Assembly: GCA_977017645.1 (NCBI GenBank)
Contig: OZ360231.1
Coordinates: 50,344,001 to 50,408,000, forward strand
Length of the DNA: 64,000 nucleotides
Origin: Torpedo marmorata
Lineage: Eukaryota
Reading direction: 5' to 3'
Part shown: positions 9,052-60,976 of the stretch, piece after piece
Layout: each line of letters opens with the position of its first letter
Position numbering within the stretch: position 1 is the first letter of the stretch
Notes under the pieces: generated by a model
Database searches by the model: none
The model's input: only the letters and a program-made list of their open reading frames with translations
Told to the model about the DNA's origin: nothing
Program-made: the position numbers and the translations under genes

Positions 9052-9132
9052 CTGTATGGTCCACTTTGGCATCAGTTTCAGGCATTGGATTTGAGGTGAT
9101 GATGGGAGAACTATCTGATGGAGAGTCTGACT
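9052..9132 (-). CDS. Repeat-exon gene, 81-nt phase 1-1 exon (ESDSPSDSSPIITSNPMPETDAKVDHT)
   Basis: ttatttcttgcAG ... acag|GTaatt; 81 nt, no stop; divergent member of the exon family. Confidence 0.7.
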
Positions 9133-9979
9133 CTGCAAGAAATAACAAATCTGGCTGTTAGAAATGCACTTTATAAGAGTATACAATTTCATTGAAAGCC
9201 AAAGATGGGTCAAAATGTGCGTTAGGGGCAAGTTTCAATTCGGAAAAGTGTGTACGTGCAAAAATAGCAAAGCTTTCAGATACAGCAACACATTTAAATA
9301 TCAAGGAAATTTATACATTCTTTGATGATATACAAACAAGATGCAATGAGCAATGCATTTAATCATTGATGTGAACATCATTTGGAATATTCACTTGATG
9401 AAACAATAGTTGAGTTGGATGAAGCATGCATTCGGACAGAAAGGTGCTTCAAATGCAACAAATTAACATAGACTATTTGATATAATGAGCAAAAGTAAAC
9501 TGAAGTTAAAACAAACCAGATAGCAAAGATAGCAAAAGAACATCTTGCACAAATGCAAAACTATGCTACATGCAACATTGAATGGTATAACAGTACAAAG
9601 TTTATATCTGTGTCATAGGTTGGTAATATTTCAGACATTATTCAGTATTTTTGGAAGGTTGATATATGTACCAGATAAAAATAAGCCCAATTATAAGTTA
9701 AACTATTAGAACATATTTTCTCTGCATGAAAATAAAATGTAATACAAAAAACTTCATCCAAATCCCTTCTGGCATCAACTATTCTGTTAATTATTCTGCA
9801 ATTTCAATTTTTACTTCAACAAAAACTGTTTTTTTTTCAGGTAAAGAATAAATGTATTGTAGAAGTGACATGCAAAACATAAAATAAGAATGAAGACTGT
9901 TGAGCAACAAGAGATGATTATGCGATTTTTAACATAACATTAATCATCAAAAATACCATGCTGTTATTTTTGGATATAC

Positions 9980-10069
9980 CTGAGAGATCTTTTTCTTCAG
10001 TGTTACCCAGTTGAGATACTGGGGTTGATTGGAACACATTTGGAGTGTCAGATGAGGAAAGCCCATAGT
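9980..10069 (-). CDS. Repeat-exon gene, 90-nt exon (DYGLSSSDTPNVFQSTPVSQLGNTEEKDLS)
   Basis: tttttgtcctcgacAG ... tcag|GTatat; 90 nt, open, contains the SDTPNVF family motif. Confidence 0.8.
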
Positions 10070-11290
10070 CTGTCGAGGACAAAAACACTAAATGCAACCT
10101 TCGTTCATCTCTCATCAAATGGCATACCTGTCATACCTGTCTCATAGGTTAGTAGAATTAAAAAAGACTAATTGCAAATTTCTTTTGTCTCTCATGCACT
10201 GTCCGTGATAATACATTCTCTGTGATAGGATTTATTTTACAAGTATATTGGATGAGAACACACATGACTTCTGGCAAGACTAAGTGCTAAATTGTTAGTT
10301 CTGTGCTATTAAATATTTCTCATTCAGGAATAATAGCAATTTAAAAAGATGCATTTAGGTAAAAACTATATTTAAATTCTATGAAGTGCACAATATGAAT
10401 CAGATGATCCATTTCACAACAAGCTGAAACACAACATTTCAGGAAATGCATAACGTATTAAACAAAAGGAATAATGCAGGCAAAGGTACAAATCTGCAAA
10501 ATGCATGATAACGCATTTCATGCAAGAACAGCAAAACAGATTCCAAGCAAGATAAAGTGTAATTACAATGCATTCAATATACATTAGTTCAACATATAGA
10601 GTAATATGTAAATAGAATTTGTGACAGAATTTATAGCATGTCATACTCATTAATATCACAAATTTCAACAACATACCTTGAACCTCACAATATTGATTAG
10701 GCAATCTATTTTGCAAGCCTCTAAAGTTCATGTGATACAGTACAGTACACAGGTAACAGGCATAAAGGGAAGCAAGTCCTTTGCAAGCTTTGGAACACAA
10801 TGCAAAGTGATCACGTCATACTTTTCAAACAATGGCAATGGATGGACTCCAATGCAAGATACAGTGTCCAGAGCATTTTGAATCTGTAACCATTTCCACG
10901 GCAAACATGATACAGTGAAAATCCAGCATTGTGTTTACAAGCTAACAGCTGCATAGCTTGCAATCGCTTAAGCTTTTTTAAAAAAATATTGCAGAGTTAA
11001 TATATTCTTCAGTCTCAGTTTGATTGGGTTGCAAACATTCTTCATGCAAATTTTTTATGAAGGCAAGGTGTGTTATTCTACATTGCCTTCCATCTTTATT
11101 TATGGTTGAATGTTCTAATTTCCAGAATTTTCCATCTTAATTTATGATTTAATATTTGCTTGAAGATGTAAAATCACTAAAGATAATGCTATAATTTCTT
11201 AAAATCACATAATAATTTCAGAAAGAAGATAGTCTTAAAATATCAGATCACAATGTCAAGAACGCATTCCAGGAACATGACTGCAAATAC

Positions 11291-11380
11291 CTGCCAAATC
11301 CTTGACCTCTGTGTTATCATGTGCAGATTCGTGGCTTTGACTGAATACATTTGGAGAGCCATGGATTGGCAGTTTATAAT
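11291..11380 (-). CDS. Repeat-exon gene, 90-nt exon (DYKLPIHGSPNVFSQSHESAHDNTEVKDLA)
   Basis: ttttactccttatAG ... gcag|GTattt; 90 nt, open. Confidence 0.8.
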
Positions 11381-12852
11381 CTATAAGGAGTAAAAAGGAA
11401 AACAAGTACACACCTGCATTTCCTCTACATTGGTCTGCAGAACACATAGATATTTGGTCATGGAGGCATCAGAGCTTGGCATTCATATACAAGGAAAATG
11501 TTCGGGATGGGGGAAGAAATGAGATGTAGAGGTGCAGCATAGAGTGAACTTCATAGCTGGATCATTGGTGGATGTGGGAAATACGGTTGGGGTGTAGGGG
11601 GGAATAGGTTGGTGCCATGATGTTGGAGGGGATCAATAGTCAGGGCAAGATAGGAATGGAAGGGGACATTGAAGTTGGCAGGTTTGAGGCCTTGTACTCA
11701 AGGTACTGCTGAGAGAGCAGATCCAGGGTAGTATTTCATGGGAACAGGTGGTGGGGGTAGGTGGAGGATAAATTACCCATCCAGCACTGTGGTGGAAAGA
11801 CCACATTGTCTCAGGGGCTCCTGACAAAGGGTGATTCCAGCATGAAGTTTCAGTTTTCATCCAATGCACCAAAAGGAGTATTGCATGGGTAATTACATCC
11901 TCCTGTGCACCCAAAGTAGAGTTCAGGTCGGGGACATAAAGATAACTCATGCCCAGAAATGCCTGTTCAAATTTCCAGAAAGAAATGAAACAATGTGGAA
12001 ATGGCCATTACAATGTTTTGTTCTAAGGAGAATAAAATCAATTTCTCATTGCTTTGCCTTGAAAAAAATAAGTTGTACAACCACATTTCTATGATTGAGA
12101 CAGGCGGACTGGCCTTTTAAGTTGCTGCAATAACTGGAATCCTGTGGCAATTCCTGCTGTGAGTGAAAAATAAAGCTAATTGTAAAATTATCCACTGTTA
12201 ATAGTAGGGAGGTTCAAAATTCCATCCATCAAACTTATGACAGTTTGGCTACTAAGGACAAAAAGCTTGGAGTTGCCTTAATTTGTTCTGCATTTTATCA
12301 AAATTAAGTTTAACAAACACCAATCTGATCATGTAATGCTTTACATGAGTGTAGTCGTGAAAAGGTGCAAGTTGCAGTCTGTTAAAATATGGTGTTATAT
12401 ATGGAAAAGTAAATCATCTCTACATAATACAAATTGACTGCTCACACTTTTTAGTCAACACAGCTAATATAATTCTTCAGATTTGAAATACATTACTTAA
12501 CCAAATTCCACAAAGAAATATATGAAAAAGACTCCATACAAAAGATATAACCGCATCACAACTTCATAAATACATCAAATCTGGTCTAGCAAAATTTAAT
12601 TTGTGCCAAATACTTAAATACAAAACAAAACCTTTGTTCGCCTTGACTATAATGGAAGTGAAATGCTATGCTCTAGTAATATTCAAAACTTCAAGCATGA
12701 AAATAGTGATTAGCAAATACAGTATAGTTGCATTTCTTACAGTAACAAGTAGATAATGTATTTTCTTGCAAGATGTGGCAAATGAAATGACTGTACTTTT
12801 CAGAACGAGACATGTGACCAGTGAGTGACTCGTATGACAGGCAACCTATTAC

Positions 12853-12942
12853 CTCTGATCTCTTTGTCTTCTTTGTTATCAAATTCAGATCTTGGAGTTG
12901 AACTGAACATACGAGAAGTTTCAGAATTTGTTGCTTTAGGGG
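12853..12942 (-). CDS. Repeat-exon gene, 90-nt exon (APKATNSETSRMFSSTPRSEFDNKEDKEIR)
   Basis: ttttctttgtttcttctAG ... agag|GTaata; 90 nt, open. Confidence 0.75.
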
Positions 12943-15180: not shown

Positions 15181-15270
15181 CTTTAAATTCTTGGTCCTCC
15201 GTGTCACTATTTTCAGATATAGGAGCTTGACTAAATGCATTAGAAGCATCAGAGTTTGTCAGCTCATGGT
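15181..15270 (-). CDS. Repeat-exon gene, 90-nt exon (DHELTNSDASNAFSQAPISENSDTEDQEFK)
   Basis: gtttttgttgtcccttgcAG ... aaag|GTattt; 90 nt, open. Confidence 0.8.
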
Positions 15271-17554: not shown

Positions 17555-19610
17555 CCCTCTCCGCCTTGAAGAAGGGTCCCAGCCTAAAATGTCAACTTTC
17601 CATTTTCCCCCACCACTGAGTTCCTCCAGCAAATTTTCTGCATCCAATGTCTTTCACTTTAGATTTCTGCATCTGTAGTCTCTTGTGTCTCCTGTTACTG
17701 CTGTTTTATGCCAACCAAAAAACTTTGGTCAAGGAAAACCTTTTCGCTGCAACCTTTTGCTCATATTTTACTTCTCTTCATAGCAGGTAACAGGATATTA
17801 CAAAATGGACAGACATTTTGTTTCATTGCCAGTAATATGCCTGCTGAGCAGCAATAAAACAGATTCTCTAAAGGCCTATTCTGTTTTCAATACCATAGAT
17901 TTATTTCAAATTGTTCTTTAATAAGAGAAGCTCCTGAAGTCAGACTTAATCTGCACTTGGAATTCAAGCATTGGACATTTTAAAAAGATGGCCTCCATAA
18001 GATGTCACCAAATAGAGAACACTTTGAGACCCTCCACTTTGCAATGGAGCTCGAATTTCCTGCAAGTGGCAAGCCTGTAGGGATTCAGCGCTGTGCGATA
18101 AAAGTGAAAGCTTACCTCACTGTTAATTTTTAATTGCCAGTTCAATTCTCAACAATGAGGCCTGAATAGTAAGGCATATGTTGGGAGGCAGAAGATGTTT
18201 TTCCAGGTGAAATGGAGAAATCTTTATCAACAAGTTAAACCACATCCTTGCATAGCCAATTCTGAAAACTGTCAGGTTCCGAATGTCACTGAATACATAC
18301 CGTAATTAACCTGGAATTTCCAATGCCATCTCAATGCTAATACTGATTACTGAAATAACGGTTTCCAGCACTGGCATGTCTACTCCTACTCTGCTGCTAT
18401 AGACTGCTCTTGTGCTGCATCAGTAACCTGAGGGAATCCAACAGGGGTGCTGGGAGGCCTGGCTCCTGAGCTTGCGCTGTGTTAAACATGATTAAATTAT
18501 TAAATAAACACATTAAATGAAGAGTAGTTATCAGTTTCTGGGGGAAAAAAGGGATTAAGTAGCTATTTATTTGTTAGTTTCAATGTTTTTATTTTTTCAG
18601 TATGAAAATATCAGAATGAGAAAAATATTGGGGCAGGTGCAGGATTGGTATAAAAGGTGGGCTTTAGTGGTCAGTGCACCCAGTGAGCCAAAGGGCATAT
18701 TGAAAAATTAGAGCCAGAGAATCAACAATATTTTTTTAATTTTTTAAAAAAACTGGTCCCAAATGTTATTGAACATTTGCAAATGTCAAAGCTGTTTTCT
18801 CTGTCTAGTAGAGTGTCTGCCAAGATTCCCCCTATGCTGCCTCAGCCATGCTGAAGAGCTGGGACTCAGGCTTCCAGAGGAAGACGGTACTGAGAGTCTT
18901 GCCAGAACAAATGGTGTGGTTCATCAGCAGTCCCCATTTGTGAGGCAGCAGAAAATCTGCCCCATTAAAAATTAAAAATCCACAAAGTAAAACATTTTAG
19001 AACAAACCATTAAAAATCTTCCACTAAAAATTGTAAATTGTCAATTACCCAGCTTGTTCCCTCACAACCATTTGTTGCCTTGCAAATGAATGGATTTGGT
19101 GTTCAGATGGCAGCTTCGCAGTGTAAGTGCTGGGGAACTGATACTACCTCTCCATTTATTGCTGGACTCTATGATGAATCCAACATTGCAGCACAGAAGC
19201 AATGATGAGCAACTGAAGCAGGGAACTCAAACTAAAAAGCACGAAGGCAAGAAGGAGCCCAGCATTTCTATGAGAGCTTAATTGGCATTTTGCTAAAAAA
19301 ATATGGCCCATTTTCTAGCCAATAAGAATAGGGAAAGCTAATTATTAACTCCTCAAAGGCACAACAAAGGATCAATTCCAACAACATTTACAAAGCCTAA
19401 TGATTATAAGGTGAGAAACAAAGACTGGATGTAACAATATTCCAGCACTGTAAAGACACACTTGAAGGGTGATGCAATGATATAAGCATTCTGTTTGAAT
19501 GCCTGTACACCTAACATTAATACATACAAACATAGCCAAACACAACTTTTACAATTCGTGCAATGTATGACATTGACCAGCAAGTTTATTTTGCAGAAGA
19601 GCAATCAAAA

Positions 19611-19770
19611 GACATAATGTGCTATGGAGTATACCACTTACCCAACACAAGGCATAATGTGCTATGGAGTATACCACTTACCCAACACAAGACATAATGT
19701 GCTATGCAGTATACCACTTACCCAACACAAGGCATAATGTGCTATGGAGTATACCACTTACCCAACACAA
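19611..19770. repeat. Minisatellite, 4 x 40 bp (grcataatgtgctatgsagtataccacttacccaacacaa)
   Basis: Four near-identical head-to-tail units with no spacers. Confidence 0.95.
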
Positions 19771-20124: not shown

Positions 20125-20214
20125 CTGTGAAAGTCTTGTCCTCTATGTGGTCAAGCTCAGAAACAAGGGTTGGAATGAACACATGAAAAGTGTCAGAGGT
20201 TGGCAGCTTATGGT
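20125..20214 (-). CDS. Repeat-exon gene, 90-nt exon (DHKLPTSDTFHVFIPTLVSELDHIEDKTFT)
   Basis: tttctttgtcatcctttatAG ... acag|GTactt; 90 nt, open. Confidence 0.8.
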
Positions 20215-21588: not shown

Positions 21589-21669
21589 CTGTCAGTTTTT
21601 TCTCTCTTGTACTATAAGCATGGGTTGGATCAGACAATTTTGTAGTCTTAATTGTTGAGGGTTCATGGT
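21589..21669 (-). CDS. Repeat-exon gene, 81-nt exon (DHEPSTIKTTKLSDPTHAYSTREKKLT)
   Basis: ttttttttgttatctgttacAG ... acag|GTattc; 81 nt, open, DHE start. Confidence 0.75.
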
Positions 21670-23660: not shown

Positions 23661-23665
23661 ACGTT

Positions 23666-24296
23666 TGTAAGAGCCGTAGGCTCGTTTAACTTACCGTTGT
23701 TGCGGCGCTCCGATGTCTAGTCGGGCCTTGGAGCGCTCGCGTTGTTCACCAGGCCGTCCTCGGAGCGCTCCGAGGCCACGTCGGGCCTTGGAGCGCTTGA
23801 GTTGTTCTGTGGGCCGTCGTCGGCCCGTTCTTTGATATGCGCATGCGCGGGAGTGCCGACGGGCGCATGCGCAGTATGGAGTGACGTCATTGTGCGCGTG
23901 GGAGGCTGTGAGTTGTAGTATGCGTGGGGTAGGATGCGCAGAGCCATTAGAGAGAGAGAACAAAGAAAGGATAGAGATGTAGGAGGGTGAGTCTGGTCTC
24001 CACATCTTTATTGACCGTTTTATATCGTTTTATAATGTTTTTATAACTTTAACATCATCTACAGTGTTTCATATCGTTTTGGAATTGTTTAAGGAATAAT
24101 TTAAAGGAACTCATCATACATCGTTTACAAGAACTGTTTATATTAAAGTCATTGAAGATTACTGCAAGTCATGTGTGAAAATAAAGGTTTTGAACATATT
24201 GGACTTTGTTAGTAAATTAATTAAAATGCGTCAAAAGCAAGGACCACACTTAGCCTCCAGATGACTATTGGTGGAGCGAAGTCACCGTTACTTATA
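23666..24296 (+). repeat. 5' LTR of BEL/Pao element
   Basis: Matches 28991-29621 with about 5 substitutions by eye; contains aataaa. Confidence 0.95.
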
Positions 24297-24742
24297 GTCA
24301 ATAAAGGGCTGGCTGTTTGGAACAGAAGTTTGAAAGAAAGAAGATAGAAAAAACTCTCTGTGCTTTGGACTGATATAAATTGGTGGCCATTTTGGAGTTG
24401 CCTCGAGTTGGGGGCAGTTTGTAATCCACTTCCATCTGCCATGAATAACAGCCAGAGAGGGATTTAAAGCTTCAAATCTTATAATAAAGTGTCCTATAAA
24501 TACGTTGGAGAAACTATTTTTGGAAAATCAGTGATATTAGTGACGGATGTTGTGGTTGAAACTCGTTTAAGGATTGCAGCACATTACAGTCATTAGAAGT
24601 GGTAGGCATAAGTCTGTGGACTCCTTCTGTGTATCTTTAGCAAGTAAGAACACAGATTGGAATTGCTGCCGCTGGTCCATTGGGGACTGTTGTTTGACTA
24701 GTGTTGTGTATGCTTGAAGGAAAGAGGAACAAGACGAGTAAA

Positions 24743-28567: not shown

Positions 28568-28604
28568 CATTTTAACTCAGATTTGAAGATAAAAGAACTT
28601 TAAA

Positions 28605-28785
28605 GAGACATTATGATTATTATGGATAATTCAACTTCAAGAAATTCCTGGTTACTTGGAAAAGATTATTGAGACTTTTCAAGACAAAGAGGACTTGTGC
28701 GTCAAGTGCGAATTAAAACTAAGACTGGTTTTCTAAACAGACCTATTAATAAGGTCTGCCTTTTGTTGGAGACAGAGGAACTTTG
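28605..28785 (+). pseudogene. Remnant of BEL integrase C-terminal segment (DUF5641-like)
   Basis: With frameshifts it reads DIMIIMDNSTSRNSWLLGK/IIETFQDK/GLVRQVRIKTKTGFLNRPINKVCLLLE, the typical end of BEL pol. Confidence 0.8.
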
Positions 28786-28990
28786 ATAAATGTGATCTGA
28801 CTTTATTTGTTGTTGTATATTTCACAGGTTACAGACTTTTGTTGAATCAGAGTTATGGTAAACTCTAGATTTATGAAGAAGGAAGAAAGAAGATTTGTAT
28901 TGTTTTGAATATTATGGTTATTGTTATTTATAATTTATAGTGTAATTATTATTCAAGACATTACGTCTAATTATAATAATTAGGGGCCGG

Positions 28991-29621
28991 TGTAAGAGCC
29001 GTAGGCTCATTTAACTTACCGTTGTTGCGGCGCTCCGATGTCTAGTCGGGCCTTGGAGCGCTCGCGTTGTTCACCAGGCCGTCCTCGGAGCGCTCCGAGG
29101 CCACGTCGGGCCTTGGAGCGCTTGCGTTGTTCTGTGGGCCGTCGTCGGCCCGTTCTTTGATATGCGCATGCGCGGGAGTGCCGACGGGCGCATGCGCAGT
29201 ATGGAGTGACGTCATTGTGCGCGTGGGAGGCTGGGAGTTGTAGTATGCGTGGGGTAGGATGCGCAGAGCCATTAGAGAGAGAGAACAAAGAAAGGATAGA
29301 GATGTAGGAGGGTGAGTCTGGTCTCCACATCTTTATTGACCGTTTTATATCGTTTTATAATGTTTTTATAACTTTAACATCATCTACAGTGTTTCATATC
29401 GTTTTGGAATTGTTTAAGGAATAATTTAAAGGAACTCATCATACATCGTTTACAAGAACTGTTTATATTAAAGTCATTGAAGATTACTGCAAGTCATGTG
29501 TGAAAATAAAGGTTTTGAACATATTGGACTTTGTTAGTAAATTAATTAAAACGCGTCAAAAGCAAGGACCACACTTAGCCTCCAGGTGACTATTGGTGGA
29601 GCGAAGTCACCGTTACTTATA
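28991..29621 (+). repeat. 3' LTR of BEL/Pao element
   Basis: Direct repeat of 23666-24296, preceded by ggggccgg. Confidence 0.95.
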
Positions 29622-31294: not shown

Positions 31295-31839
31295 AGTGAA
31301 GTGAAAAGAATTGAGTGTGTGCAGTCGAATACATCCAGCAGCCAATACTTTTGCATGGTCAATACCAGTAACCAACATTAACTTTCTTCCTGAATGTTCA
31401 GAACGATTATTTCAGAAATATTCAAAATAATTATAAAAGATTTAGATGGAAATAGACAAGCCATGCAATGTCATTATTTTCATGAAAAACGTGACATTTT
31501 CATTCAACACATCACAACAAATTAGGCATAACAATTTGACAAACATGTTACGGCCAAGCACAGCCTCTAGGTTTCTCAGAGTAGGTGTGCTGCCTAAATA
31601 CGCCAACAAGATAAGTAAAATTTTAAAATTGCCTCATTTCATATCCATTTTGCTAAAATTTACATGCAAGAAAGTGCACTGATCTGTCAAATACATTTTA
31701 GACAGAAGTGAACTGCACAACCATTGAATTATAAGTGTCAAGTGGTATTTTAGAATGTGTTCTAAATCCTTGTCAAATGTCATTTACAGTTGTATTTACA
31801 GATATCCTAAATTCACAAAAGCACAAATATTGCCAAAGT

Positions 31840-31930
31840 ATCTACAATGTCAGGAACTACCATCTTAGTAAGTTTAGATCATGAGATTTCAATGAATATC
31901 CTAGGTCAAGATTAAACTAGGTTGGTTCAA
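31840..31930 (-). pseudogene. Decayed copy of repeat exon
   Basis: Flanks are homologous (gcacaaatattg..aagta / ggaatccagatgcaaaatc) but the donor is mutated (gtatct instead of gtacct) and the acceptor is lost. Confidence 0.5.
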
Positions 31931-32441
31931 GGGGTTAAAATGGAATCCAGATGCAAAATCCTTATCGACTCAGTAAAAGAATCCTTGTGGATCTTGATGA
32001 ACAACTAATTAATTCAATATTATTCCAAATAATTCATGTAAGAGTACACTGATCATTAATGAGTACATGAAGTAACATCATTTCAATTGCATGAAACTTA
32101 ATTATCATTCAATAACCTTCTTAACAAAGCAATCCTAACCAGCAGATAGCACGTTTACATCTAAGCAGTGAACTCAACAAAATATGAACATTAACCCAAC
32201 AAAAATAAGCAAAATACATAAAACACTGGAAATTTGCAATGGTTGCTCATGTCATTTGTGCAGTGTGACAACATTGAATAAGCTGCAAGCAATATGGTGA
32301 ACTGACAATCATAAATGCTTGACACACAAGTGATCCAAACACTCACATCACTGTACAAGCATGACATAGCCTCTGCTGCATATGCCCCATATTTCCACCA
32401 CTTTAACACAAGATCTAAGGCACAGATATTGTTTAAGGTAC

Positions 32442-32582
32442 CTGTAACTTCAGTATCTCTTATCTTAGCATGCTCAGGTTCTGGAATTGGATTGGTCACA
32501 TTAGGAATATCAGTGGCTGGCAGCTCACCGACAGGTATTAAACTGAACACGTTAGCAGCGTCTGAGATTTTCACTCTGCGGT
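32442..32582 (-). CDS. Repeat-exon gene, 141-nt exon (DRRVKISDAANVFSLIPVGELPATDIPNVTNPIPEPEHAKIRDTEVT)
   Basis: ttctttcttatcccttcAG ... acag|GTacct; 141 nt, open. Confidence 0.85.
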
Positions 32583-33164
32583 CTGAAGGGATAAGAAAGA
32601 AGCTGGATACAAAATTCTGTTCATCCCAAGAAGATTACAAGCTGTTTTAATGGATAACATTGAATTACAGGACATTATGGTGTACCAAATTAGCACAATT
32701 TGTCTTATTCTTTCAATATAATTTATATGGATGAAATGAGATGAAAATGATATCATTCTTATAGTACGAACCAATGTGTAAGATAGCATTTTGCCTGATT
32801 AATTCAATATAATAAGCAGTGATACACTAACATACATTGTTCCTGCTACTCAAAGGTATTTCACCATTCAATACACTTTACAGGTGATTGACAAATTATC
32901 AAAGTCAAATAATCCAAAACATATTTTAAATATTGCTTGATTCCAAAATATATCTAGTGAATATTGCAGTTAATCATACTTTGGCACCACACTGGAATTA
33001 GTTGCATGCACTGACTATCAAATGCACTTTACTTATGTGTAACCCAAACACCCATTGGACTACATAGCCTAATTTTCTGTCACATTGGTATCGACCTCAA
33101 TATGTGCATTTCAATTATTCTATTCCTCAGTCCACACTTAAGGCATAAATATGGTCAGCAGCAA

Positions 33165-33300
33165 CCTAACTTTAGCATCTCTATTTTAGAATCTTCAGGT
33201 TTAGGTATGGGATTGCATTTGTAATGTCAGTAGCTGGCATCTTTCAATCTGAAATTATATTGAACATGTGAGGAGTATCACAGGTTGTGATCTCGTGGAT
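33165..33300 (-). pseudogene. Decayed copy of repeat exon
   Basis: Homologous body, but the acceptor reads cccttaaatcc (no AG) and there are small deletions near the donor. Confidence 0.65.
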
Positions 33301-33946
33301 TTAAGGGATAAGAAGGAAACTAGATACAACATTTTAATCTCTCATGAAACAACAATGTTCTTTTGATAATTAAAAATAATTTTGTTTTCCATGACATCAT
33401 TAAACTGTGAAAATGTTTTACTCTTTTTCTTATATATTCAAGTGGAACATAGGTATCAAACTAATCCTATATCCAAACCTGAACAGTCCAAGATAGGGAT
33501 GCTAAGGTTACAGGTGCTGCTGACTGTATTTATGTTAAAAAATTAATTGAATAGTCATCAAAAAATAAATTTCATAAGAGTGGTATAGCAACTTCATGCA
33601 GCCTATTTTTTCTACAATTTCAATGCTAATTATCCCTGAATACCAAATTTCATGACTTGTTCATGACAATAAATTCTGATTCTGATTCTAATTCTGATAA
33701 TCATCACAAAGTCATGACCACAATTGGCTGGCAATCTGCAACCCAGCTTGAAACTCAAGAGAAAAGTACAATGAGAATAAACATAAGCAAACTACATGAC
33801 ATTCCATGAGATATGCAGTGGATTGACTATTCTCTATATATTACATTCTGGCTAATAATATACTTTACACAAACACCAACAAAATACTCTGAATTTTATT
33901 AACTTTAGTACAAATCTCAAAACCAAATGCTCATTGATGTTAGTAC

Positions 33947-34081
33947 CTGCAATTTCAGTATCCCTTAACTTAACATGCTCAGTTTCTGTTATTGGATTGA
34001 TCACATTGGAAGTATCAGTGACTATCAGCTCATGATCTGGCGTTAAAGTAACCACATTAGGCGAATGAAGCACCAAATGGT
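33947..34081 (-). CDS. Repeat-exon gene, 135-nt exon (DHLVLHSPNVVTLTPDHELIVTDTSNVINPITETEHVKLRDTEIA)
   Basis: ctttctaacccttcAG ... gcag|GTacta; 135 nt (6-nt in-frame deletion), open. Confidence 0.85.
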
Positions 34082-34739
34082 CTGAAGGGTTAGAAAGGAA
34101 GCCAGATATTAAATTCTTATTCTCTCAAGGTGGTTACATTTGGAGTTGTATAAATGAGTAATCGAAAATTATTAAATATCATTATTATGTTGCAATATAA
34201 TTAAGCTAACTTTTTAAATAAAATTAAGTTAAATGGAATGAAACATAACCACAAAGGACACAATACTGAAGTATGCATAACGTAATATCTTATTTAACAA
34301 TGTTATTCAAAAAAGTGATAAAGCAACATTCTCCATGCAGCTCTTTTTACTACATACAAACACACATACAAATTTCTCATCCAATAACAAACTTAAAGTG
34401 TTATAGCTATGATAGGTTAATACACTGTTCAATTCTAAATGCAATAAAATAAGGGAGTTAGCTAAATACTTCAACAACAAGCAAAATGTTTTTAATTCCA
34501 GGAGGTCTGCATTAGATTGCATGGATTCATTCATCTAATTTGTCTCTCAACTTGAGGTTATGTACCAACTATCACACTCACTTTACACTCAAGATGAACA
34601 AAGATTTAACTGAAACGTTGTGGGAAAGAAAGATATTACAGAAGAAAACTAATTTTCTGATACTTTACATCAAATCTTATCCTGCACACAAGTATTTCCT
34701 AATCCTCAGTTTACACTCAAAGCAGAAATATTGGTGGAG

Positions 34740-34830
34740 GTTCTCGAGAAGTCAGTTTTTCTTATAGAGAGCTTCTGATTTTGGGAATACTGGACAGGTT
34801 AGGAGTGCCAGAGACTGGCACCTTACAACC
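34740..34830 (-). pseudogene. Decayed short copy of repeat exon
   Basis: ttaggagtgccagagactggcacc core and the ggataagaaag..gccaaata flank remain, but both splice sites are destroyed. Confidence 0.55.
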
Positions 34831-35029
34831 GGAGAGGATAAGAAAGTAGCCAAATAAACATTGTTAAGTCTTTCTTGAAGATAATGCCAGTGTTGTTTTG
34901 AAGGATATAATTGAATCATTGGCCAGTGTTAAACAAGTAAGCATTAAAATGTAACTATGAATTATTACAGAATCATCTAAATGTATTTGTTGATTATTTC
35001 AATTTTAGTCAAAATATCACCTGGTCAAC

Positions 35030-36145: not shown

Positions 36146-36519
36146 AAAGCAACTCATCCTCCATATAGAGGCAGTCTTTTCACCATGCCAACATTCTACA
36201 ATAAACTTCTAAACATGATTGGCCAAAACGAGAGCTTTATCAAACAATCTCCAATTCAATGGATAAAGTTCTATTACCAAGTAATTCAAAAGATTTTTTG
36301 TTAATTTCAGGAGATATTCAGTGGATTATTCATTTTGTGCACATTTGCATCAAAGTTGAACAAGTTGCATGCAAGCAATCTTATTAACATGTTATACACA
36401 GTAATCCAATCACTGATTTAACTTGAAAAATATGGCACAACCCTTGTAGAGAATGTTCTAACTCCCTGTCATTTAAATGGAAGCATCAACAATCAAGGCA
36501 CAAATACTGCTCAAAGTAC

Positions 36520-36655
36520 CTGAAATGTCATTATCTATAATCCAAGAACAATCAGGTACTGGCCTTGATTAGATTAGGAATATCAGTGACGAAGAGCAGA
36601 TGGTCTAGCACCAATATGATCATATTTGGAGTGTCAGAGATTGGCACTTTATGGT
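36520..36655 (-). pseudogene. Frameshifted copy of repeat exon with intact AG/GT
   Basis: tgtcttcAG...tcag|GTactt but 136 nt; reads DHKVPISDTPNMIILVLDHLLFVTDIPNLIKAST*. Confidence 0.75.
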
Positions 36656-37131
36656 CTGAAGACACACAAAGGAAGCCCGATACAAAATTCCATTTCTCTT
36701 AATAAGATTACACAATTCACTTTATGATATTGAATTACTGGCTGTAAATTCAGTAGAATTGAATGTATAATAAAATTATACTGAACAGTCTCACTCTGAT
36801 CAGTACTTCTCAACCTCTCAACTATATATTTACACTTAAAAATCATACAAAAATAACATAACAGCGCAACAATATTATTCCCACTAGTTCATATCAATAG
36901 TGGCATGATAAGTTGGTAGATAAATACCCAGCAAAGTTACTAAATACCATGAAATAAGCAGAGATGAGTAAGCTACTTATTTCCAAGAGCTATGCAATGG
37001 ATTGTGCTCTTGATATATATCTGAATGGTTTACATTTATACTCATTTAACTGTAAAAGCAAGACATGTGACCTGATGTTAAATATTCTTTTTCTTAGTTC
37101 ACACCCAAGCCACAAACATTGTCAAATGGAC

Positions 37132-37271
37132 TTGTAACCTTTGATTCCCTGCCCTGAATCTTCAGGAATGGGGATAGGATTGAACACATTGGAAACGTCA
37201 GTGGCTAGTATTTCATAATCTGACATTAAAACAAACATGTTAGGAATGTCGGACGTTTGGTATCTGAAGAT
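37132..37271 (-). pseudogene. Frameshifted copy of repeat exon
   Basis: 140 nt, early frameshift and stop, weak donor (caa|GTcc). Confidence 0.7.
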
Positions 37272-37917
37272 CTGAGAGGTAAGAGGGAAGCCACATCCAA
37301 ATTTTTAAGCTCTCATGAAAATAGTGCCTGTGTTGTTTAGATGACTACAACTATTTTACTGGACATCACTACATTATAGTAATGCGGTCTAACCTGTCAT
37401 TTCACTATATAGATATATTTGAATATATTTAGACTATGAATTATGCAACAAGACAGAGTATCAAACAAATATGTTGAGTAATTAATTCAATGGTATCAAT
37501 TATCATGTTGACTGATTCATTCAACCAATCGTATTCAACAAAAAGGATTCTCATATGTATTATATGCCAAACTCCATGCAATTAGTTTCCTCAATGTCAA
37601 GATTAATTAGTGTTGGGCAATTCTTCTAAAACCATGGCCACAATCAGATGGCATAAAATCTAAAGCCAAGCAGTTAAATAAATGAGAATGGCATGTTGAC
37701 CAAATAGGTCAATCGATGTAAGTATAATGATTAAGATTTCAAGCTCTGTATTGCTCATTTCACATAATTTGTGACACTGAGCAAGTTTTATGCATTTCAA
37801 TGTCTTAACTATGATAAAATGAAATGCAGAGCATAGTAATTCTACAGGTACCCTAAATTTCTTACACCTTAGTACAAAATTCAACACACATGACACATTG
37901 AGGTTTGTCAGAAGTAC

Positions 37918-38058
37918 CTGTAACTTCAGTATCTTTTATATTAGCACGTTCGGGTTCTGGGATTGGATTGATCATATTAGGAGTATCAGTGATTGGCAAC
38001 TCATGGTCTGGCAGTAAAGTGACCACAGCTGGAAAATCTGAGTTTGGCACCTCATCAT
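37918..38058 (-). CDS. Repeat-exon gene, 141-nt exon (DDEVPNSDFPAVVTLLPDHELPITDTPNMINPIPEPERANIKDTEVT)
   Basis: ccttcttatccctttAG ... acag|GTactt; 141 nt, open. Confidence 0.85.
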
Positions 38059-41471: not shown

Positions 41472-41597
41472 CTGTAACTTTAATATCTCCTATCTCTTCA
41501 GACTTGGGTGTGGGATTAATGTTATTAGGAATGTCAGTGGCTGGTGGATCAGAGTCTGGGATTAAATTGAACACATCAGAAGTTGACACCTCATGGA
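41472..41597 (-). CDS. Repeat-exon gene, 126-nt exon (VHEVSTSDVFNLIPDSDPPATDIPNNINPTPKSEEIGDIKVT)
   Basis: ttttcttattccttcAG ... acag|GTacct; 126 nt (in-frame deletions), open. Confidence 0.85.
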
Positions 41598-42161
41598 CTG
41601 AAGGAATAAGAAAAAGCCAGACACAAATTTATAATCTCACTTGAAAATGATACGAGTTACTTTGATCTAAATGATTGTACTAATGAATGTTATTACAAAG
41701 CAGCAATGTTGAATAATTAATTGTACTACTCTATTAAAACTGTTCAAGTGAACTTGTTTTTACAGTACCAAACAGAATGGTGTACCTAAATATAAAATGA
41801 TCTATACAAATTCTATAACAGATAAATCATGCAGCTATATTTTTCACTATTAATAATACTTTTTACATCATAATATTCACAAAGATCAATAAAACAACAG
41901 CCATTCCATGCACAGCAATGTTCCTACTACATAAAAGTGATTTGCCATTCAATAAACTGCAACAAAATCGATGTGATTGGTTGATAAATGGTTGAATTCC
42001 ATGCAGGCAGCGTATGGACAATAAATGAACATTTAACAGCATATGTATGGAATATCAGCTACACAATGTCACTTAACAATGAGGAGCTTTGGCACATTGA
42101 TGATGAATGATGAATGATGATGAATAATTTCACTTTCAAGACAAAAATATTGCTATCAGTA

Positions 42162-42296
42162 CAAGTAACTTGGGTTCTGTATCAACAAATTTAGATTTGG
42201 AGACTAGATTAAACACAACACAAATGCCATTACCAGATCATAGCCTGAGCTTAAAGTAAAAAACTTAGAAGAGTCAAAGTTTTGTACCAAATAGTC
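42162..42296 (-). pseudogene. Decayed copy of repeat exon
   Basis: Homologous flanks and body; acceptor AG changed to TG; multiple indels. Confidence 0.6.
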
Positions 42297-42759
42297 AGGG
42301 TAATAAAAGTGAAGCAAGGTACAATTTTTTAAATTCTTATTAATTATTCTCACACAAATCTAGGTTTCCAGCACCAGCATTCCAGATGCCTTCTGCCTTG
42401 GCAAAGTCAGATGCCATGGAGTCTAATGGGATAGCACAAACCTCTGCACATTTTCTAACTGTCAGACAGGGATGTTTATGCACTGAGACCCCAATGGTTG
42501 ATCCGGGCAATAGCCTGGATCGGGAGAAATTAGCTGCCACGTAAAAGATGTTAAGTTTCTTTTTATTGAACGGTCTCAATGTTTATAATTCATTTTTCAT
42601 GTGCGAATTTTTTAAATCTTAAATGTATTTTTAAAATGATATTTTAAACAAGATATTCAGTCAACAACATTTGACACTTTGATATCCAGTAAGCCAAGGC
42701 TTACCAGCTGTCTAATCCATGCTGAGAGTAGTGAGCTGTCAATACGGAGGCACATGTAC

Positions 42760-43848: not shown

Positions 43849-43989
43849 CTGCAACTTCAGTATCTCTTATCTTAGCACGTTCAGTTTCTGGGATTGGATT
43901 GATCACATTAGGAGTACCAGTAATCAGCAGATCATGGTCTGGGATTAAAGCAAGCACTTTAGGAGTGCAAGAAGTTGAAACCACATTGT
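43849..43989 (-). CDS. Repeat-exon gene, 141-nt exon (DNVVSTSCTPKVLALIPDHDLLITGTPNVINPIPETERAKIRDTEVA)
   Basis: ttttttatcccttcAG ... gcag|GTattt; 141 nt, open. Confidence 0.85.
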
Positions 43990-44556: not shown

Positions 44557-44694
44557 CTGTAACTTCAGTATAGCTTATCCTAGTAGCTTCAGACTTGGGA
44601 TTTGGATCGAACACATTAAGAATTTTTGAGACTGGAAGCTCAAAGTCTGAAATTAAATTTAATACATCAGTGTTAGAGATCATCATGCCATGGA
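44557..44694 (-). CDS. Repeat-exon gene, 138-nt exon (VHGMMISNTDVLNLISDFELPVSKILNVFDPNPKSEATRISYTEVT)
   Basis: catttttaccctcAG ... acag|GTactt; 138 nt, open. Confidence 0.85.
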
Positions 44695-45276: not shown

Positions 45277-45408
45277 CTGCAACTTCTGTATTGCTTATCT
45301 TGGTTTGTTGTGGTTCTGGGATTGGATTGATCACATCAGTAACCAACAGCTCATTGTTTAATGGAAAAGTGAAGACATTAGCAGTGTCCGAGGTTGGCAC
45401 CACGTGGT
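45277..45408 (-). CDS. Repeat-exon gene, 132-nt exon (DHVVPTSDTANVFTFPLNNELLVTDVINPIPEPQQTKISNTEVA)
   Basis: cttccttatcccaagcAG ... gcag|GTactt; 132 nt, open. Confidence 0.82.
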
Positions 45409-45913: not shown

Positions 45914-46057
45914 CTGCAACTTCTGTGTCTTCTATTTTAGCAGTGTCAGATTCAGGGAGCATGATTGGGACATTTGAAATGTCAGTGACTGGTACCTTAA
46001 TGTCTGAGATTAAATAGAAGATGTTAAAAGTGACAGAGGTTAGCATCACATGATCAG
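45914..46057 (-). CDS. Repeat-exon gene, 144-nt exon (ADHVMLTSVTFNIFYLISDIKVPVTDISNVPIMLPESDTAKIEDTEVA)
   Basis: The homologous acceptor position is TG, but an AG lies 3 nt upstream (agcacAG); donor gcag|GTattt; open. Confidence 0.65.
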
Positions 46058-48121: not shown

Positions 48122-48265
48122 CTGTAACTTCTGCCTCTCCTATCATCGTAGGGTTAGGTTCTGGGATTGGATTGATCACATTAGGAGTGTCTGTGGCTTG
48201 CAGTTCATAGCCCGACATTAAAGTGAACACTTTAGATGTGTGAGAGGTTGATAACTCAAGGTCAT
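48122..48265 (-). CDS. Repeat-exon gene, 144-nt exon (DDLELSTSHTSKVFTLMSGYELQATDTPNVINPIPEPNPTMIGEAEVT)
   Basis: ccttttgatctttAG (3 nt upstream of the homologous position) ... acag|GTagtc; open. Confidence 0.75.
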
Positions 48266-50210: not shown

Positions 50211-50570
50211 ATTCCCCAAGTCTCCATCATCCTTCTCAATTGTGGTGCCCACATTTCAAGACAGCAGCACAATGACCAAATAATCTAGCAGATATGTGGA
50301 AATCCATTAATTCCACAAGCAATGCATTGGACTGCTTATTTCATATAATTTGTGCCAAAGCTTTGCATTAGTTTCATGGAAAACACCAAGGTAACAAATA
50401 CATCCCACACATAAACACGAACAAATACACTTCACACAAGGTACCTGAACATTCATTTAACATGTAGAACATGTTAAATCTCTCTCAGCACAAACCTCAA
50501 CATGCACATAATATTTTACACTGCAGCATCCTGGACCTCATACCCAAGGCATAAGTAATGTCAGAGGAAC

Positions 50571-50708
50571 CGGTGACTTCACAAAATATTATCTCAGCAG
50601 GTTCTGGTTTTATAGCTTTAGACACGTATGGGGAGTCAGGCACTGACAGCTTATACTCTGGCTGAAAGGTGACCTCATTACAAGTTTGAGAAGATAATAT
50701 TGTATGGC
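50571..50708 (-). pseudogene. Probable inactivated copy of repeat exon
   Basis: Open 138-nt frame (GHTILSSQTCNEVTFQPEYKLSVPDSPYVSKAIKPEPAEIIFCEVT), but the homologous acceptor is AA and the donor is weak (ccg|GTtcc). Confidence 0.6.
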
Positions 50709-51346
50709 TTGAGGAAATAAAATGTGGCTGGGTATTTTTAATCCCTCTTGAAAATAAATCCCCAAGTTACAATAATGAGTAAACATGCTTTCAATAAATA
50801 TTCCATTTTCATTATAAAATTAAATGAATTCCAACATAAACATAAATTGAGTGCATTATCATAAAACAATCCATAACATTGTGACGCATTAATTCATAAT
50901 AGAAAATGTTTCATTGGAGTGATGTGACAAAAAGCAGTTCATGCAGTAGCACTGCACCATAACCTAAAAGCAATTATAATACAAAAAGCGGTTCTGTAAT
51001 ATAGCTGTAACAAAATGAAAGACAAGTTACAGCCATGCACAATCTATACACTTTATGAGGAAAGGACATTGACCAAAATAATAAAACAGAAATAAGCAAA
51101 ATGCATAAAAGTCTTCATGAATTGCAGTAGATTATTCATGTAATATATAAATGGTGCAATTGGAATGAATGAATTCCATGCAAGACAGTGACTCAACATA
51201 TACAGCTTACACTCAGGCTGACTGAACACTAAACTATAGAAGTGTGGCATGGCATCTGAAGCATGTGTCTCCACTTTCTGGCACTTGAGCAAAAATTTCA
51301 ACATGCAACTATTCCCAGGTTCAGACACAAATATTGTCAAAAATAC

Positions 51347-51487
51347 CTGTATCTTCAGTAACTCGCATTTTAGCTGGTACAGATTCAGTGATCAGACTGA
51401 ACTCATTAGTGGTGTCAATGTCTTGGGGCTTAGAGCCTGAAATTGTTCTGAACATGCTAGGAGTATCAGTGGTCGGCTCCATGTGGC
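51347..51487 (-). CDS. Repeat-exon gene, 141-nt exon (GHMEPTTDTPSMFRTISGSKPQDIDTTNEFSLITESVPAKMRVTEDT)
   Basis: ttctttctcatccctcAG ... acag|GTattt; 141 nt, open. Confidence 0.85.
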
Positions 51488-56354: not shown

Positions 56355-56385
<31 letters not shown>

Positions 56386-57170: not shown

Positions 57171-57416
57171 TAGTCTGCCCAAGGACAGGTACGTGTTGGA
57201 AAAGCATGAACCAAACTGTGCTTTAAATGGGCATTGTACAGGAATGATGATGGAAACAGCGTCATCTACACAAGTTCAAATCACAACTGGAAATTGCTGG
57301 TCAAATTCCACTCAAGACACAACTGACTTTCATGCAACTGAATTTCTTTGCCAAAGTGACGGTTTTCAATTTAGCACACATACCAATAGCCTAAATACAA
57401 ACACAGTCAGGAATAC

Positions 57417-57556
57417 CCGTAACATCAGTTTCCCTTGTGCAAGCTTGTTCAGATTGGTTGTTTGGTTTGCACATGTTTCGAGAGTCAGAGAGCAGGAACT
57501 TATGGCCTGACAGTTAAGAATCCATTTTAGGCTTTTGAGAGGTTAGCACCGCATGG
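57417..57556 (-). pseudogene. Decayed copy of repeat exon
   Basis: Donor retained; acceptor region deleted; in-frame TAA. Confidence 0.7.
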
Positions 57557-58101
57557 GAAAATAAGAAGGAAGCTGGATGCAAAATTCTTAGGTTCACATG
57601 AAAATAACCCCCAAGTTGCACTGATGAATACACTTCTATTACTGGACAAAATTAGAATGTAAGAATGTGTAGGATAAGTATTCTTTTTTTTCATTGTAGT
57701 AAAATTTAATGTATTCAATGGCAAATACAGGTTATGCATGGTTTCATTTACAGACAAATAAACTTATTATTCCGGAGGGTTCAGATTAAAGTGCTAACAA
57801 GTGGACAGTCCATGCAACAACTCTATAAAAGCCAATTATTATCCAACTTTTAGAGCAAATTAATTGTGACAGGTTGATAGTTCACAGTAAAGCACATTCT
57901 TTGAATGTCCAACAAAAGGAAACATTATGTTTAAATTCCTATTAATAAAACATTATATCAACTGCACAAGCATGGTGTGATGTGGCATGGGATTTACGGC
58001 ATGCGTCTGACCTCTATTACTTTTACACAAACCTCAACATGCAACTGTTATTTACTTCATCCTAGAGTTCACAGAGAAGACATGAACATCATTAGAAGTA
58101 C

Positions 58102-58242
58102 CTGCAATGTCAGTAACTCGTATGTTAGCTGGCTCTGATTCTGGAACCATTTTGGATAAATTAGGAGGTTTGGTGGCTTGTGGTTTATAGCCAGAGATTA
58201 ATCTGAACAGGTTAGGAGTATTAGAGGATGGCATCGTATTGA
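58102..58242 (-). CDS. Repeat-exon gene, 141-nt exon (VNTMPSSNTPNLFRLISGYKPQATKPPNLSKMVPESEPANIRVTDIA)
   Basis: tttttcttatcccctcAG ... gcag|GTactt; 141 nt, open. Confidence 0.85.
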
Positions 58243-58863: not shown

Positions 58864-58990
58864 CTAAAACTTCAATGTCTCTTATCCTGATGAATTTAAA
58901 TTGTGCATTTGTATTGAACTTAAATGGAGGGTCAGACAACGGCAGCTTACAGCCTGCTTATATGAGGAGTGTGAGAGATTGAAATCAGGA
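58864..58990 (-). pseudogene. Decayed copy of repeat exon
   Basis: aacttcaatgtctcttatc..ggcagcttacagcctg..aggagtgtgagagattg body without splice sites. Confidence 0.55.
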
Positions 58991-59504
58991 GATTTTTAAA
59001 AGGTCAGAAGCAAAAGTTTTCATCTCTCACGAAATAATGCAGAAGTAGCACTGATGAATTACTGGACATCATTAAAATTGTCAAAATAAAGATTAATCTG
59101 AAGCTCTGAACCTACACAGATGTTTCCAAATCTGTTGAGTACTTTCAGAATATTTTCTTTTTTATATCATTACAATGTCATAGTGCTGGAGGATGCATTT
59201 TGTTTTTTATTATAAATTTAAATAGCTTCCCATCTACTCATAACTTTGTGTTTAATGAGGTAGAACATGAAGAACACAATGCATAAGTCCAAAACATAGG
59301 CAATGAACTGCTTATTTCATAAAATTATGTCAATATACTAAACATGCTGCATGGAAGATCCATACAAGATACTGTACCAACTAACCAACTAAACCTCTCA
59401 CAAAAGTAACTCTCATTAACTCTAAATATGAAATAAATCTTCTGCAACATATTTCCTCATTTTCTCTCAATTTAGTACCAAGGAAGAAACATCAGCAGAA
59501 GTAC

Positions 59505-59627
59505 CTGTAACTTTAGGACGTTCAGATTGTGTGACTGGATTGAACATGCATGAAGAATCAGGGGCTGGCAGCTTAGAGCCTGACATTAAAGTAATCACTT
59601 TAGGAGTGCGAAAGGTTGACATATCAT
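59505..59627 (-). CDS. Repeat-exon gene, 123-nt exon (DDMSTFRTPKVITLMSGSKLPAPDSSCMFNPVTQSERPKVT)
   Basis: cacccccaccccAG ... acag|GTactt; 123 nt (in-frame deletions), open. Confidence 0.78.
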
Positions 59628-59749
59628 CTGGGGTGGGGGTGCAGTAAGAAGAAATCAAGAGACAAAATTCATAATCTCTCATGGAGGTAATACAACTAAG
59701 TGACATTGAGGAATTCAATTGCATTAATGGACATCATTAGAATGTATTA

Positions 59750-59995
59750 AAAACACCGAAATGCTGGAGGAACTTAACTGGTCTTTTCAGCATCTATAGG
59801 AGACGTTTCGGGCCTGAGCCCTTCTTCAAGGAAAAATCAGAAAAGGCAGAAGCAGGATATATCAGAAAGTCTCAGAATTCAAACAAGGGGGGAGGAATCC
59901 AGACCAACAAAAGGTGTTAATTGGATGTGATAAGGGACTAGGTAGAATTTATCATGTCTGTGCGAAAGGAGACAGGGAATGGAGACAACGGAAAA
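59750..59995 (-). mobile_element. Penelope terminal-repeat fragment
   Basis: aaaacaccgaaatgctggaggaac..gacgtttcgggcctgagcccttcttcaagg..ccaacaaaaggtgttaattggat, matching about 7580-7800. Confidence 0.75.
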
Positions 59996-60379
59996 AAAAA
60001 GTTTCACTCTCATTATTAGAATGTATAGCTGTTATACAAAAAATCTTCCTTTTTCATTACAGTCACAAAAAGGGGCTCTCAATGCAAACATAAATTACGC
60101 AATACTTATTTTCAAATAATACAAACAATTCATAATACAAATTAACACAAGTTAGTGATAAATTATTCAAAATAATTCCAAATATTATGTAAAAGCCAAT
60201 TATAACCCACAATCACTGCTTAAATTGTCTTTGATTTATCAAATGGATTCAATGGTTCATCAAAAACACTTTATAGTCAAGACAACCAACATTTATGTTA
60301 TTTGGCACGAATCTGAATATGCAAGTATTATTTATTTGAACCCCAAGTTACAAACAAAACAGAAAAATTGTCAAAGAAT

Positions 60380-60515
60380 ATGTAACTTTTGTAAATAGAA
60401 TGGTAATTGGTTCTAGAACTGGTTTGAACATTTTAGGAGTGTCAGTGGCTTGCTGTTTATAGCCTGGGATTAACAATTTGCAAACTGGGAGTGAGAAAGA
60501 TTGGCTTCTCGTGGC
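60380..60515 (-). pseudogene. Decayed copy of repeat exon
   Basis: Body ttaggagtgtcagtggcttg..tagcctgggatta is retained; donor lost, pyrimidine tract deleted. Confidence 0.65.
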
Positions 60516-60835
60516 CTGAATTATACAAAATTCTTAATCTTTCATTAAAATACAACAATGGACACTCCACAAAGCATCAATGTTTCCATCAGATCAAAGT
60601 TAATTATCACTCAATAAGCTTTCAAACAATATAGCCATAATTGGCCAACCAAGCAGTCTACAAGTTCTATGAAATAAGAACATTCACCAAATAACCCAAC
60701 AGATACAATCAAAGCCATAAATTTCAGGAGATATGCAGTGAATTGTTCATTTTATAAAATTGTATCAAGTCACATAATTAAAACATACAATTATTGCAAA
60801 TCACAACACCACGATACAAGCATTATCACAAATAC

Positions 60836-60976
60836 CTGTAGTGTCAGTCTCTCTTATCTTAGCAGATTCCAGTTCTGGTATTGGATAGATCACATTAGGC
60901 ATGTCAGTAACTGGAAATTCATGGTCTGCCATTAAAGTGAACACATTATTAATGTCATAGGTTGGTACCTCATAGT
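60836..60976 (-). CDS. Repeat-exon gene, 141-nt exon (DYEVPTYDINNVFTLMADHEFPVTDMPNVIYPIPELESAKIRETDTT)
   Basis: cattcttatctcctcAG ... acag|GTattt; 141 nt, open. Confidence 0.85.

Follow-up and report, generated by a model that had tools for sequence, protein, structure and literature searches.

The repeated exons at 9052-60976 on the minus strand of a Torpedo marmorata locus (assembly GCA_977017645.1, contig OZ360231.1, forward-strand positions 50,344,001 to 50,408,000; this whole stretch of 64,000 nucleotides (nt) is called the window) are very probably the central block of tandemly duplicated, frame-preserving exons of ABI3BP (TARSH), encoding an acidic, Ser/Thr/Pro-rich spacer that is predicted to be unfolded and likely varies in length through the omission of exons, singly or in runs. 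The exons are all of phase 1-1, stand in one frame between an N-terminal FN3 region and a C-terminal FN3 and TARSH_C region, and belong to a gene orthologous to ABI3BP; the array makes up the 3' two-thirds of the repeated-exon stalk of that gene. An earlier note on this DNA had described a hidden gene that could not be assigned to any known protein. We could not uphold either part of that claim, since a profile of the exon peptides matches ABI3BP/TARSH-type proteins of sharks and rays and RefSeq predictions for related rays already include the gene with these exons.

Intact and decayed exons in the window

Boundary fitting on the minus strand of 9052-60976 yielded exactly 20 intact segments of 81-144 nt, the number and lengths given in the earlier note. 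Each carries an AG acceptor and a GT donor (AG|GT in 20/20), has phase 1-1 and a length divisible by three, and is free of stops, again as reported. Joined, the segments give 2,346 nt or 781 residues with no stop and two Cys, in good agreement with the roughly 800 T/P/S/D/E-rich, nearly Cys-free residues described; the composition is 11.9% T, 10.2% P, 9.2% S, 9.0% D and 8.1% E (S+T 21%), and the net charge is -77. As a chance control we took intervals of 81-144 nt on the plus strand that run from an AG with a pyrimidine tract to an AG|GT, and only 10 of 175 (5.7%) had a length divisible by three and an open frame. The intact exons, in transcript order and with percent identity to relatives, are as follows.

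60836..60976, minus strand, stalk exon of 141 nt; internal in-frame AG; 76% Rhinoraja, 74% Hemitrygon
59505..59627, minus strand, stalk exon of 123 nt; 68% to two skates
58102..58242, minus strand, stalk exon of 141 nt; 93% Narcine; missing from Narcine isoform X6
51347..51487, minus strand, stalk exon of 141 nt; 91% Narcine
48122..48265, minus strand, stalk exon of 144 nt; single copy here, 11-16 copies in skates
45914..46003, minus strand, stalk exon of 90 nt from the internal acceptor; the 144-nt form from 46057 is also open; 83% Rhinoraja
45277..45408, minus strand, stalk exon of 132 nt; 86% Narcine
44557..44694, minus strand, stalk exon of 138 nt; only the 3' part in relatives' models; 53% over the whole exon to Hemitrygon and Mobula
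43849..43989, minus strand, stalk exon of 141 nt; 85% Narcine
41472..41597, minus strand, stalk exon of 126 nt; 88% Narcine
37918..38058, minus strand, stalk exon of 141 nt; 87% Narcine
33947..34081, minus strand, stalk exon of 135 nt; two copies in Hemitrygon; 64% Narcine
32442..32582, minus strand, stalk exon of 141 nt; 3-4 copies in stingray and manta; 83% Narcine
21589..21669, minus strand, stalk exon of 81 nt; 81% Narcine
20125..20214, minus strand, stalk exon of 90 nt; 83% to two skates
15181..15270, minus strand, stalk exon of 90 nt; 97% Narcine; first exon after the long skip in Narcine X2 and X5
12853..12942, minus strand, stalk exon of 90 nt; 83% Narcine
11291..11380, minus strand, stalk exon of 90 nt; 79% Narcine
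9980..10069, minus strand, stalk exon of 90 nt; 90% Narcine; missing from Narcine isoform X4
9052..9132, minus strand, stalk exon of 81 nt; 81% Narcine; counterpart missing from Hemitrygon X5 and X11

The exon-plus-intron unit family on the minus strand emerged both from repeat finding and from a DNA profile, and the introns between units are homologous (repeat families D9, D14 and D15, and alignment), as had been proposed. The four intron motifs quoted in support, ccatgcagcaa among them, are consensus-like on the plus strand, but exact copies number only 0, 3, 1 and 1 and the others carry mismatches. Where no element is inserted the units are spaced 461-888 nt apart, 14 of 16 such spacings falling at 616-787 nt, which fits the claimed unit of about 600-800 bp; the introns of the array are at least 505 nt long. 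The long exons consist of a 90-nt exon with its first 51 nt doubled, and because of this doubling an in-frame internal AG is present in 10 of the 14 long exons. A splice-site scan of the unique sequence returned six rows at threshold and missed most exons, and tblastn was used instead.

The claim of at least 20 copies stands for the intact exons and needs enlarging in two respects. The array runs on past 64000, with exons at 64677 and 65840 followed by ten more stalk exons up to 100760, and ten further homologous units inside 9052-60976, overlooked before, are decayed and interleaved with the intact exons.

60350..60521, minus strand, decayed unit; donor lost, frameshift
58867..59030, minus strand, decayed unit; first acceptor and donor lost
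57383..57599, minus strand, decayed unit; first acceptor lost, stop; a 90-nt short form at 57506-57417 is still open
50533..50721, minus strand, decayed unit; first acceptor lost, weak donor, frame still open
42128..42329, minus strand, decayed unit; acceptor lost, donor degraded, frameshift
37096..37316, minus strand, decayed unit; donor degraded, frameshifts
36485..36701, minus strand, decayed unit; both splice sites kept around 136 nt with stops
34710..34862, minus strand, decayed unit; acceptors and donor lost
33129..33344, minus strand, decayed unit; acceptor lost, stops
31818..31972, minus strand, decayed unit; deletions, both sites lost

The short form at 57506-57417 has no clear counterpart among relatives' proteins, and the unit at 50.7 kb (50533..50721) is the best, though narrow, match of an exon in the skate, stingray and manta models. 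Within the unit at 36485..36701 an intact acceptor and a CAG|GT donor enclose 136 nt with stops (36520-36655, minus strand), inclusion of which would end the frame; this unit may be silenced or act as a poison exon.

Two other elements were seen inside the array. On the plus strand, in a 10.8-kb array intron, a 5.6-kb element (23666-29290) lies between 300-nt direct repeats that are 99% identical and holds a 1,289-codon frame (24698-28564) with SAP and DUF1759 matches; it is likely a young long terminal repeat retrotransposon. A tandem repeat of 4.1 copies of 40 nt (19609-19770) stands directly 3' of the minus-strand exon at 20214.

The complete gene and its identity

A profile built from the peptides of 19 of the 20 exons was searched against longer proteins, with 8,000 candidates scored. 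All 18 matches were shark or ray proteins with TARSH_C and FN3, the best being the Narcine bancroftii 'target of Nesh-SH3-like' protein (87% identical to the first query), which bears out the earlier suggestion that sharks and rays were the place to look. A full HMMER pass over 1.84 billion proteins gave 18 matches, 12 of them cartilaginous-fish ABI3BP or fragments matching its exons; the other six were weak matches (E 8.8e-6 or higher) to unrelated repetitive proteins, which we attributed to composition and discarded. We added 200 kb on either side of the window for gene mapping, and tblastn placed every part of the shark and ray proteins in order on the minus strand of the same contig (C43).

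C43:50275273-50579614, minus strand, whole abi3bp gene; 53 exons over 304 kb

The start codon lies 171.6 kb past the right end of the window (flank extension and tblastn), as expected from the earlier statement that the 5' end was beyond 64000, and the stop codon 68.7 kb past the left end. From 5' to 3' the gene contains the first coding exon, the N-terminal FN3, short Lys/Pro-rich exons, ten acidic Ser/Thr exons, the array, an FN3 and TARSH_C. The 53 exons found by homology, which include 40 consecutive phase-1/1 exons, form one open frame of about 1,840 residues whose first stop is the terminal codon. The N-terminal 215 residues are 91% and the C-terminal 280 residues 95% identical to Narcine, and the C-terminal part is 66% identical to alligator. 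TARSH_C (PF21731) is encoded, above the cut-off and in frame with the array, by three exons at C43:50275285-50285588. Pfam fn3 matches two stretches in full-length relatives, and the exons for these stretches were placed on the 5' and 3' sides of the array with 83-100% identity. Hydropathy revealed a single hydrophobic stretch, residues 1-24 (hydrophobic 19-residue windows start at residues 1-6 only), and no membrane segment in the mapped gene; with this N-terminal leader and without a membrane segment, the product is predicted to be secreted.

Searching with the C-terminal region of a relative gave 3,517 matches, the best 120 of which were mostly named target of Nesh-SH3 or abi3bp, with one 'FNDC1-like' at 91%. 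A second TARSH_C locus, at C11:116055900-116089400 on the minus strand of another contig, is presumably the paralogue FNDC1, a separate locus that shares the FN3 and TARSH_C-type end. Over the three C-terminal exons, identity to coelacanth and alligator ABI3BP is 55-66% for the C11 locus against 67-79% for the abi3bp locus, and identity to Hemitrygon ABI3BP is 50-61% against 80-100%. These pairwise identities place the gene closer to ABI3BP than to the FNDC1-like paralogue, and on sequence grounds it is the orthologue of vertebrate ABI3BP and not a new gene. CD44, CD45, titin, a true mucin gene and FNDC1 were all rejected as its identity. CD44 variant exons, CD45 A/B/C and titin PEVK resemble the array in that symmetric exons tune the length of a low-complexity stalk; they are unrelated genes, and since the mapped gene has no membrane anchor, CD44 and CD45 serve as analogies only.

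RefSeq ABI3BP models of rays and sharks (Narcine bancroftii XP_069744745-50, Hemitrygon akajei abi3bpa XP_072901275 and on, Stegostoma, Cetorhinus and skates) contain the same gene and repeat. In the ray models the exon order is the same, and 15 of the 20 window exons are 64-97% identical to Narcine; the five others, kept here, are missing from the Narcine models. Every one of these models is a computational prediction, and the names of several are wrong ('mucin-2', 'FNDC1-like', 'uncharacterized'). The little skate 'mucin-2' and the horn shark 'fibronectin type III domain-containing protein 1-like' entries share 91% identity with Hemitrygon abi3bpa across 299 C-terminal residues, and both look to be abi3bp under a wrong name.

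ABI3BP is a secreted matrix protein of poorly defined function, and the mammalian protein has a matrix location and an integrin-beta1-linked activity (PMC6426741). The ray gene resembles its human and bony-vertebrate counterparts in its predicted secretion and in having two FN3 and a long middle predicted to be disordered, which is alternatively spliced in the human gene and probably also in the ray (PMC9239745, PMC13518942, PMC6426741); the longest human isoform has 1,786 residues (PMC9239745). It differs in its first intron, reported to be a conserved GC-AG intron in ABI3BP of 11 bony vertebrates (PMC7242645); in the ray the intron after the first coding exon is GT-AG. A GC donor was observed at window-coordinate 102128, where it ends a 69-nt stalk exon at the place from which Narcine X5 jumps over 27 exons.

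The human ABI3BP gene has IMPG2 and TFG as neighbours. A PB1 domain search gave six matches in the genome and none on C43. On the same strand, 230 kb upstream of abi3bp (C43:50809590-50811587, minus), there is a 665-codon, Ser/Thr-rich, mucin-like frame that ends in the start of an SEA domain; the SEA match is weak (25.6 bits against a cut-off of 26.4). IMPG2 is Ser/Thr-rich with an SEA domain; searches of PDB and Atlas yielded no name for the upstream frame. Elsewhere, C54:34105786-34260548 and 34490954-34612131 hold dozens of near-identical SEA-domain exon pairs about 3.6-4.2 kb apart, apparently a large tandem SEA-repeat gene or gene array.

Stalk properties, constraint and splicing

AlphaFold2 gave Narcine X1 no secondary structure over residues 1-600, with a predicted local distance difference test (pLDDT) of 25-38, and a folded FN3 at 650-745; a single repeat had no structure (predicted template modelling score 0.14), and two repeat units matched no Pfam family. 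The stalk is predicted from these models to be a long, low-complexity, disordered middle. Along the whole encoded protein, the first 400 residues are basic, and of the 11 blocks of 100 residues between 401 and 1500, 10 are acidic. The S+T (21%) and P (10%) contents are compatible with O-glycosylation, and judging by composition the stalk would most likely be an extended O-glycosylated spacer in a matrix protein, separating the two ends through which it would bind matrix or cells. What the earlier note had called a length-tunable glycoprotein or structural protein thus survives as a secreted, mucin-like extracellular protein whose stalk length is probably tunable, although not as a new gene.

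Several lines of evidence suggest that the window exons are under constraint. Among 24 long-type units, one of which lies just outside the window, a length divisible by three and an open frame were found in 14 of the 15 with both splice sites and in only one of the nine without them (Fisher p 1e-4), the unit at 36485..36701 being the sole exception to the rule. Exon identity among intact units (0.64) exceeds that of their flanking introns (0.54, 0.46), whereas in decayed units it (0.52) is not above that of the introns (0.60, 0.54); the ratio of nonsynonymous to synonymous substitution (dN/dS) between paralogues is 0.59-0.72. Each of the 20 window exons could be matched, at 53-97% identity and with the order kept, to one or more of six ray proteins, and four unnamed database fragments run through skate exons into the intron at the same donor positions. 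Three tests thus argue that the window exons are functional.

The RefSeq isoforms of relatives, whose numbers run to X23-X30, highlight how the stalk may be spliced. The shorter isoforms are pure deletions of the longest in all comparisons made for Hemitrygon (19/19), Mobula birostris (4/4) and Cetorhinus (3/3). The deleted pieces are single exons of 23-47 residues or blocks of up to 374 residues, and by inspection their ends match exon starts. Narcine X5 is without 27 consecutive stalk exons and X2 without 26 of them; 17-residue deletions at the internal acceptor occur in Hemitrygon X2 and Stegostoma X8, and for two units the short form is the only one in the ray models. The longest Hemitrygon, Mobula, skate and shark models carry 12-27 repeat units in a row, and models with both ends and the array exist for Hemitrygon, Mobula, three skates and four sharks. 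Going by these computed models, the ray stalk is likely spliced by cassette and block skipping, which would give products of about 850 to about 1,840 residues, and a second in-frame acceptor inside the long exons would add a finer 17-residue step. Because all units are of phase 1-1, the frame survives when an exon and its intron are duplicated, left out or deleted, which explains the gains and losses between lineages.

A number of observations weigh against this account. RefSeq isoforms are computed models and do not establish how exons are joined along a complete transcript, and apparent skips between repeats that are nearly identical could stem from misplaced reads. Ten Hemiscyllium comparisons were not pure deletions (the alignments slipped between repeats) and were not used, and six of eight Stegostoma isoforms have a 2-residue insertion besides the deletion. 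In Narcine, the closest relative, both N-terminally complete models skip most of the array and the four models with the array start inside it, so that there is no full-length model. The dN/dS of 0.59-0.72 is between paralogues, on short sequences, and indicates weak constraint; exon 65840 has no counterpart above 34% in the six ray proteins and exon 44694 is only 53% identical to its best ray counterpart. TARSH_C is also of low pLDDT in the Narcine X1 model, so low confidence is no proof of disorder in the stalk.

The alternative that fares best keeps the same gene and treats most array exons as nearly neutral passengers, the abundant product skipping the block and stalk length drifting without regulated function. 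We regard it as unlikely, though by no means negligible: the ten decayed units among the exons, one unit that varies from 1 to 16 copies, the dN/dS values and the skipping of most of the block in Narcine X2 and X5 all fit it, but splice sites and frame are preserved together, exons are more conserved than their introns, and unit order and identity are mostly kept across electric rays, stingrays and skates. It can be partly true, with weak selection on length and none on the exact number of exons. We consider it very improbable that the array is spliced as mutually exclusive exons, one or few per transcript. Tandem homologous exons of similar length invite that idea, and a cluster of 10 exons predicted to be mutually exclusive, lost in mouse and rat, is described in human ABI3BP (PMC5740500); at the level of models, however, 12-27 consecutive units occur in single proteins and shorter models are deletions, not swaps, a mutually exclusive pattern was not seen among the relatives' RefSeq isoforms compared, the introns are too long (at least 505 nt) for steric exclusion, and double inclusion of exons divisible by three carries no frame penalty. 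Slightly less credit still can be given to a separate transcript that starts inside the array and yields a protein without the leader and N-terminal FN3; four of the six Narcine models do begin there, but full-length models exist in the other rays and sharks listed above, the Narcine start has no leader, and a truncated model is the simpler account. That the units are a dispersed transposon or satellite, as the earlier note had considered, or belong to a new gene, is next to inconceivable despite a region about half repetitive with homologous introns: the eight genome-wide DNA matches found for one unit, a lower bound, all lie within the window, so the unit is no dispersed element, DNA profiles found no match of E < 1e-4 in the 400 kb of flanks beyond 65.9 kb, weaker minus-strand matches (E < 0.02) land on other exons of abi3bp, and the peptides match named proteins exon by exon. 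Local-only copies together with the coding constraint rule out transposon and satellite.

Divergence of the stalk among lineages

Returning to ABI3BP with a stalk of skippable exons, different units have expanded in different lineages. Unit 48265, single here, has 11-16 copies in three skates, and stingray and manta carry 3-4 copies of unit 32582, likewise single here; one unit in use in other species is decayed here. Shark units gave no one-to-one mapping onto the window units. With the repeat profile, all 13 cartilaginous-fish sequences gave a score, the chimaera a weak one, and none of the 13 bony-vertebrate orthologues did. Stalk net charge per 100 residues is -3.5 to -10.3 in the former against +0.9 to +9.6 in the latter, a bony-vertebrate set without mammals in which the N-terminal domain is included for three proteins, so that the acidic ray stalk faces basic ones in bony vertebrates. 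Fast divergence could hide common ancestry with bony-vertebrate repeats. The earlier description as lineage-specific therefore appears to apply to the repeat sequence and exon set, confined to cartilaginous fishes, and not to the gene itself, an orthologue of vertebrate ABI3BP.

The main texts of the literature searched held no report of a repeat confined to cartilaginous fishes, an acidic stalk, the internal acceptor or per-lineage exon expansion and decay; the supplements of PMC5740500 may show the exon cluster for further species. For abi3bp in cartilaginous fish the only paper found reports it as a vascular cell marker in nurse shark spleen (PMC10529500). For abi3bp with the electric organ no paper was found, and for abi3bp with tandem exon duplication only the one on mutually exclusive splicing (PMC5740500).

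It is conceivable, although we hold it doubtful, that in cartilaginous fishes a 90-nt exon gave rise to a stalk of their own, whose charge was reversed to strongly acidic and whose length came under two regulated controls (exon skipping and a 17-residue step from the doubling-born acceptor). Tissues would then make either a short linker with basic ends or a polyanion of about 1,000 residues, and in unmineralised and tessellated cartilage this polyanion could bind calcium or keep fibrils apart.

There is no gene discovery here: this is the orthologue of a known gene, modelled in related species, whose variable middle is known in humans. Two database names, the skate 'mucin-2' and the horn shark 'FNDC1-like', would be corrected to abi3bp. 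What the array does offer is a clear instance of exons arising and decaying, in which intact copies lie next to decayed ones. Skates, stingrays and sharks have each amplified different single exons, and the stalk charge is reversed relative to bony vertebrates. Neither the acidic repeat confined to this lineage nor the internal acceptor or the turnover of exons turned up in the literature searched, and together they merit a short comparative account. Inclusion of an exon cassette for the disordered part of ABI3BP is altered in osteoarthritic human cartilage (PMC9239745), and in differentiating stromal cells the disordered region is partly spliced out (PMC13518942); since this middle shifts its splicing in both settings without a known function, an acidic version in a lineage with a cartilage skeleton is a natural comparison.

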